From a virus (lineage: Duplodnaviria; Heunggongvirae; Uroviricota; Caudoviricetes): 4,506 nt of DNA. Numbering within the stretch: the first letter of the stretch is position 1; each line of letters opens with the position of its first letter. Both the position numbers and the translations under genes were made by a program. The notes under the pieces are model-generated. The model was not told the DNA's origin and searched no databases. It saw only the letters and a list, made by a program, of their open reading frames with translations. The stretch lies in IMG/VR virus record IMGVR_UViG_2706794689_000006; one strand, written 5' to 3'. Positions 4,314 through 4,445 of the stretch are shown here, piece by piece.

Positions 4314-4445
4314 GTGATAAAGCCATTTTTAATGACGGTTGCAATATTAACCTCTTGCTGTGCTCAGGCGAAAATACTAACAAATGAGGAGATTGTTTCA
4401 CGATTTATTAGTAACGTTAAAACGGTGATGCTGCCAACTTACTGA
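4314..4445 (+). CDS. Hypothetical small protein (43 aa) with signal-peptide / lipobox-like N-terminus
   Basis: GTG start with GGAG 8 nt upstream; alternative ATG at 4332. Translation is MIKPFLMTVAILTSCCAQAKILTNEEIVSRFISNVKTVMLPTY, stop TGA at 4443-4445. It has a basic residue near the N-terminus, a hydrophobic core, and LTSC, which fits the lipobox pattern [LVI][ASTVI][GAS]C. It is too short for the supplied ORF track and sits in AT-rich sequence, so it may be spurious. Confidence 0.3.
   Translation: MIKPFLMTVAILTSCCAQAKILTNEEIVSRFISNVKTVMLPTY

Follow-up and report, generated by a model that had tools for sequence, protein, structure and literature searches.

The DNA analyzed here, called the window throughout, is a 4,506-nucleotide stretch of a caudoviricete record (IMG/VR virus record IMGVR_UViG_2706794689_000006), and the question that it raises is whether the 43-codon open reading frame (ORF) at positions 4314–4445 on the plus strand is a gene in its own right. 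An earlier sequence-only reading had proposed this ORF as a plausible candidate for a prophage lipoprotein moron next to tail genes, with a possible role in superinfection exclusion. The features from which that reading started were recovered as described: the ORF exists and opens with GTG, a Shine-Dalgarno-like GGAG lies 8 nt before the start, and the N-terminus (MIKPFLMTVAILTSCC; over a longer stretch, MIKPFLMTVAILTSCCAQAK) is hydrophobic, its Kyte-Doolittle score over 9 residues peaking at 2.4 (residues 5–13). With very high confidence, however, the ORF represents what is left at the 5' end of a prophage accessory gene of 160 codons, which was split by simple transposition of the insertion sequence (IS) IS1 in a decaying prophage with a Mu-like tail in Shigella sonnei. 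It is a pseudogene fragment, not a small-protein gene.

The ORF was found to be composite by comparison with 5,426 complete Escherichia coli genomes. Window positions 4240–4423 matched a prophage in only 11 of them, where the annotation reads "phage tail tape measure protein" and "hypothetical protein"; the sequence from about 4424 on matched IS1A family transposase annotations in 4,964, and the two parts were joined in none of the 5,426. In a three-way alignment, identity to the prophage stopped at 4423 and the left end of IS1 began with the next base. Native sequence accounts for codons 1–36 and for two bases of codon 37, an ACG that spans the junction; codons 38–43 (VMLPTY), together with the TGA stop codon (4443–4445), belong to the IS1 terminal repeat. 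The length and the stop codon of the supposed stand-alone gene both result from the insertion, and its predicted mature peptide of about 29 amino acids (aa) comes down to 23 native residues and 6 from IS1. The identity of the element was established from its terminal inverted repeat, starting GGTGATGCTGCCAAC..., and from its length: in a Shigella sonnei contig (GCA_000281815.1; L004) the full element spans 10111–10878, giving 768 bp as expected for IS1 (about 768 bp), ends in ...GGAGTCATTACC, and encodes a 91-aa InsA ORF and a 167-aa ORF with a PF03400 (DDE_Tnp_IS1) domain. The start of insA is seen in the window at 4479 (VASVSISCP...).

All three unmasked stretches of the window match L004 without a difference; in that contig the 9-mer CGTTAAAAC brackets IS1 at 10102–10110 and 10879–10887, and the rest of the gene resumes right after the right-hand copy. 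This 9-mer is single at the same site in the intact gene, and stands on both sides of the element in L004 and in a second S. sonnei assembly (GCA_000268045.1; L005). In silico removal of IS1 and one repeat from L004 produced a 483-nt ORF whose product was identical to the E. coli protein at 160/160 residues, which indicates that the insertion was simple and recent and is the sole lesion in the gene. When identical proteins were looked up, the 43-aa ORF came back from two assemblies, L004 and L005. "Partial" S. sonnei entries of 37 aa stop exactly at the junction residue and look like short-read contigs breaking at the IS, with the 3' remnant held in separate entries. The exact junction sequence was not found in a species-representative genome collection, which probably holds no S. 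sonnei-type representative with an insertion there. Published figures put the share of IS1 among the IS insertions of Shigella at 42–59% and trace 50% of the pseudogenes of S. sonnei directly to insertion of an IS (PMC7373316); the truncation described here fits these figures and is an ordinary, well-understood kind of event.

Further observations were made at the same junction. In L005 this insertion site is taken up by two complete IS1 copies in tandem (4881–6424), with 8 bp (tacatcgg) between them and outer flanks as in L004; a second IS1 event may have taken place, or the locus may have been rearranged or assembled differently. Some matches to K-12 IS1 copies reach about 28 nt past the junction on its upstream side; at about 93% identity across 111 nt, they were set aside as BLAST extension into AT-rich flanks. 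The sole sigma-70-like match near the ORF, at 4431–4458 (CTGCCA, 16-nt spacer, TATGAT), lies within the IS1 left end and is directed into insA; this is consistent with the known IS1 promoter in the left inverted repeat, and the site is not a promoter for the 43-codon ORF.

The data show the following course of events. IS1 entered after base 110 of the gene, duplicating CGTTAAAAC as its 9-bp target. Translation from the old GTG now crosses into the IS1 left end and ends there after six foreign codons, giving the apparent 43-aa ORF, and the stub retains the export signal and about 18–23 mature residues only. Since this stub has neither the beta-barrel domain of the parent protein nor its two conserved cysteines, the gene is inactivated. 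Coordinates of the features are collected in Table 1.

Table 1. Features of the window around the junction between prophage and IS1 (L001, E. coli FDAARGOS_944; L002, STEC309; L004, S. sonnei contig GCA_000281815.1)
Feature	Position	Strand	Evidence or remark
3' part of tail tape measure gene	3413–4246	+	99.9% identical, collinear with annotated tape measure genes of L001 and L002
Spacer upstream of accessory gene	4247–4313	+	AT-rich, 34% GC in intact copy; GGAG Shine-Dalgarno at 4302–4305
43-codon chimeric ORF	4314–4445	+	Deposited as hypothetical protein SS322685_3657, Shigella sonnei 3226-85
5' fragment of PHROG 5586 accessory gene	4314–4423	+	100% identical to L001 6075–6184, start of WP_000594909.1
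Left copy of 9-bp IS1 target-site duplication CGTTAAAAC	4415–4423	+	Same 9-mer at both IS1 ends in L004
IS1 left end, first 83 bp	4424–4506	+	Left terminal inverted repeat GGTGATGCTGCC...; IS1A family transposase matches

The intact parent gene was found in L001 and L002, where the same GTG opens a 483-nt coding sequence for a 160-aa protein (WP_000594909.1 and WP_032083313.1, respectively) between the tape measure gene and a Mu-N-like DNA circularization gene. The description of the ORF as lying downstream of the tail genes was thus inexact, as in intact prophages the gene sits within the tail module. The intact protein matched PHROG 5586, a family with no assigned function, at an expectation value (E) of 9.7e-89, with residues 1–160 aligned to positions 1–161 of the 161-position profile; the window holds residues 1–37 only. 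PHROG 5586 is a very small family: a word-indexed search turned up 9 clusters, and HMMER, run exhaustively over 1.84 billion representatives, turned up 15. Scans of the intact protein and two distant homologs against Pfam, NCBIfam and PADLOC gave nothing (one NCBIfam match at E = 0.076, far below cutoff, was ignored). Among 50,697 phage records, a homolog was present in one, vB_EcoM-720R4, as URC09681.1, 50% identical and at the same position, between Mup42 and Mup43. A copy in a Yersinia enterocolitica prophage is 74% identical and lies just upstream of a gene N homolog; the tape measure gene is not called in that prophage (JBRUQM010000038.1; L006), where a gap is seen at 4491–6001.

The structure of the parent protein was modeled with AlphaFold2 from a 10-sequence alignment (predicted local distance difference test score 81.7, predicted template modeling score 0.76), producing a model with a disordered signal region, a helix at residues 24–41, and eight strands across residues 52–152. 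The stub ends at residue 37, within the helix, and holds no part of the predicted barrel and neither of the cysteines, C57 and C150, that the alignments show to be conserved across the family. Conservation of this pair would fit a periplasmic disulfide bond. Foldseek searches of the Protein Data Bank (PDB) and a viral structure library gave no match with E of 0.001 or less, and a PDB sequence profile search gave chance-level matches only (E of 0.2 or more). The predicted fold class suggests a small binding or inhibitor protein, and no specific function can be assigned from it.

Against this background, the proposal of a genuine small lipoprotein gene, with a lipid-anchored product of about 29 aa acting in superinfection exclusion like T5 Llp or phi80 Cor, is left with a close to negligible probability. 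The start codon and Shine-Dalgarno sequence are plausible, two S. sonnei assemblies list the ORF as a protein, and the lipobox pattern rules are satisfied: the segment FLMTVAILTSC (L12-T13-S14-C15) fits a regular expression modeled on PROSITE PS51257, with K3 within the first seven residues and Cys15 at the lowest position allowed (a second pattern, G+LPPv2, was checked by hand; the lipobox sought was [LVI][ASTVI][GAS]C, preceded by an n-region of positive charge and then a hydrophobic h-region, its Cys falling at 15–35). Against these points stands the junction analysis, which contradicts the proposal by assigning the last six codons and the stop to IS1, and so does the homolog search: relatives were found, none of them with a 43-codon gene, and intact copies are 140–164 aa long. 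The reading frame is indeed conserved, only because it is that of the larger gene. The whole folded domain is also missing from the stub, and no similarity to any annotated exclusion family was detected in Pfam, NCBIfam or PADLOC, the sole significant PHROG match being phrog_5586; an exclusion role of the Llp/Cor type found no support in the family libraries or the viral structure library, a comparison in which the Llp and Cor sequences themselves were not compared directly. The lipobox, although it passes the pattern rules, is not a family feature. A signal peptide was present in every family member examined with an intact N-terminus (two alignments), and the lipobox Cys was confined to the E. 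coli/Shigella (LTSCC) and Yersinia (LISCC) copies. All other members have signal peptides ending in A-x-A, mostly followed by Lys (LNSFA↓KP, PQLALA↓KD, ATVSA↓KD, FPVFA↓KK, APALA↓KA and ATSLA↓KD; cleavage at the arrow), and a lipobox in none. The native fragment in the window carries both kinds of site, a lipobox-like LTS↓C at 12–15 and an SPase I-like (signal peptidase I) AQA↓K at 17–20, as well as residues 20–37 of the mature protein, and the AQA↓K site aligned with the A-x-A sites of the distant homologs. Because the distant members use A-x-A and the lipobox is confined to one clade, the predicted family trait is Sec export with SPase I cleavage, and lipidation would be clade-specific at best. 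That LspA cleaves the Shigella/E. coli/Yersinia parent protein before Cys15, making it a genuine lipoprotein of the outer membrane through a clade-specific switch from a soluble periplasmic form, is compatible with the truncation and is possible, if not favored: the signal would be only 14 residues long, at the lower limit of the rule, the aligned AQA↓K is intact here while the distant homologs examined all use Cys-free A-x-A sites, and both clade members are close relatives, so that their shared CC says little. For the Yersinia homolog, the annotation starts at an internal ATG (L006 5975–6003; MMLISCC...) and leaves no proper signal peptide; an upstream ATG, with an A6 run after it, is out of frame, and one extra A would give MKKTYLLVFMMLIS followed by CCSQA, again with Cys at 15. 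A frameshift, a sequencing error in the homopolymer, or decay to a pseudogene could account for this.

The sequence-only view of a prophage moron was right in that a real prophage gene, one with moron features and an N-terminal export signal, supplies the frame, and failed in that there is no 43-aa gene. Taken together, position, base composition, an own terminator, and occurrence in other contexts indicate that the parent gene is mobile accessory cargo (a moron), not a tail part. A structural or assembly component of the Mu-like tail could also occupy a conserved position between tape measure gene and gene N, as is seen in three prophage or phage lineages, and this we consider highly unlikely, as the parent gene encodes a Sec signal peptide and has a homolog in just the one phage record named above. 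In L001 the gene has 36.9% GC and its spacers 34–39%, against 49–55% for the tail genes, placing it 15–18 points under its neighbors, and the contrast is repeated in 720R4 and Yersinia. The gene thus lies between genes that are adjacent in related phages and deviates in base composition, and it is followed 6 nt after its stop codon by an intrinsic terminator (L001 6563–6585; 10-bp stem, then a T run). In Mu itself, no gene is known to separate gene N from the tape measure gene. Two distant homologs, in Pantoea sp. F_7 (L007 1–452) and Logan SRR13837185 (L008 2919–3413), lie outside tail modules, on phage-plasmid-like elements whose neighboring genes include IncFII repA, mazE/pemK, parA, a CI/S24-type repressor, and a RecA-dependent nuclease gene. 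The L008 gene is at local GC (54.7%), compared with about 35% for the gene in enterobacterial tail modules. The hairpin of the L001 terminator (AAGCCGCCAGAAATTGGCGGTTT, then TTTTAT) is strong and bidirectional-looking, and stands within the tail operon before the DNA circularization gene; at this location, it forces late transcription either to read through or to start anew beyond it if the downstream baseplate genes are to be reached.

The intact parent is probably a moron gained by horizontal transfer. Its product would be exported by the Sec pathway to the cell envelope and there be soluble in the periplasm after AQA↓K cleavage, like the other family members; in this clade it may instead be a Cys15-anchored lipoprotein. 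Its fold would be a small barrel of eight beta-strands, probably stabilized by a disulfide. In the envelope of the lysogen, a role of the binding or inhibitor type seems most likely, which is a guess from fold class and context only. Nothing counts against the IS1 truncation itself; the points that do weigh against our reading concern the parent. A simple scan upstream of the gene found no sigma-70 consensus site that could serve as a moron-specific promoter, and independent expression in the lysogen is accordingly hypothetical. The fold matches are weak and generic, making the binding or inhibitor role speculative, the N-terminus would suit SPase I as well as SPase II processing as far as sequence can tell, and the putative disulfide is read from conservation only. 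A broader proposal, that PHROG 5586 is an uncharacterised class of exported beta-barrels carried by temperate phages and phage-plasmids of Enterobacterales, acting in the envelope of the lysogen and switched in one clade to a lipid-anchored form, is unlikely as a whole. If true, the family might block superinfection or neutralise an incoming envelope-active enzyme, and the window would hold an IS1-killed copy; no specific activity is supported.

The prophage around the gene is being dismantled by several IS elements. In L004, IS4-type and IS3-type elements stand in place of most head genes (2620–5650), leaving a truncated Peptidase_S78 alone, and another IS1 disrupts the gp46/gp47 baseplate region (14700–16150). 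In L001, ISEc60 independently splits the tail sheath gene (956–2146). Frame breaks seen in the window in the tail sheath ORF (81–1016 and 830–1495) and in the tape measure ORF (2271–3455 and 3419–4246) were considered as signs of the same decay, and rejected. They are masking artefacts, because the N runs at 614–780 and 3137–3412 are masks of the wrong length (167 vs 249 nt and 276 vs 250 nt, respectively, by comparison with L004/L001) and both genes are intact in L004, with products of 498 and 649 aa. The whole tape measure gene of the window spans 2271–4246, broken by the second N run; its 649-aa counterpart in L004 was assigned to PF10145.

The case serves chiefly as a warning. When an IS lands within a larger gene, its end can provide the stop codon that makes a signal-peptide stub look like a convincing ORF for a small secreted protein or lipoprotein. 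The stub seen here has already entered S. sonnei assemblies as a protein record, and anyone screening IS-rich genomes, those of Shigella among them, for small ORFs should look for IS termini at ORF ends. PHROG 5586 itself is a minor lead, as a rare and mobile family of predicted exported beta-barrels of temperate phages and phage-plasmids with no assigned function. The window is unsuited to its study because the gene is broken here, and an intact copy from another genome would be required.

Compared with known systems, the parent protein resembles T5 Llp and Cor of phi80 and N15 in being small, encoded by a phage and predicted to reach the envelope, in having a short signal peptide and, within this clade, in its lipobox-like motif. 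Unlike these, the parent gene is not beside a receptor-binding protein gene, the lipobox is missing from most of the PHROG 5586 family, and no link was found via the family libraries (to which, as said, direct comparison of the sequences was not added). Llp and Cor are also smaller than the mature parent protein of about 140 aa. Periplasmic or lipoprotein lysozyme inhibitors (PliC, MliC and PhiA) and other small eight-stranded periplasmic barrels are among the closest known systems. Phage morons such as lambda bor and lom are like the parent gene in standing between two conserved tail genes, at about 15 GC points lower and with an own terminator, in a product predicted to be envelope-targeted, and in occurring in different contexts in other elements; they differ in that no promoter was found for the parent gene, whose sequence is unrelated to Bor, to Lom and to all named moron families. 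The IS1-interrupted pseudogenes of Shigella share with this locus the 768-bp IS1 with its terminal repeat GGTGATGCTGCC..., the 9-bp target duplication and AT-rich target, the 5' stub and 3' remnant, and a host, S. sonnei, in which IS1 is the dominant IS. They differ in nothing of substance, the broken gene here being a prophage accessory gene instead of a metabolic one.
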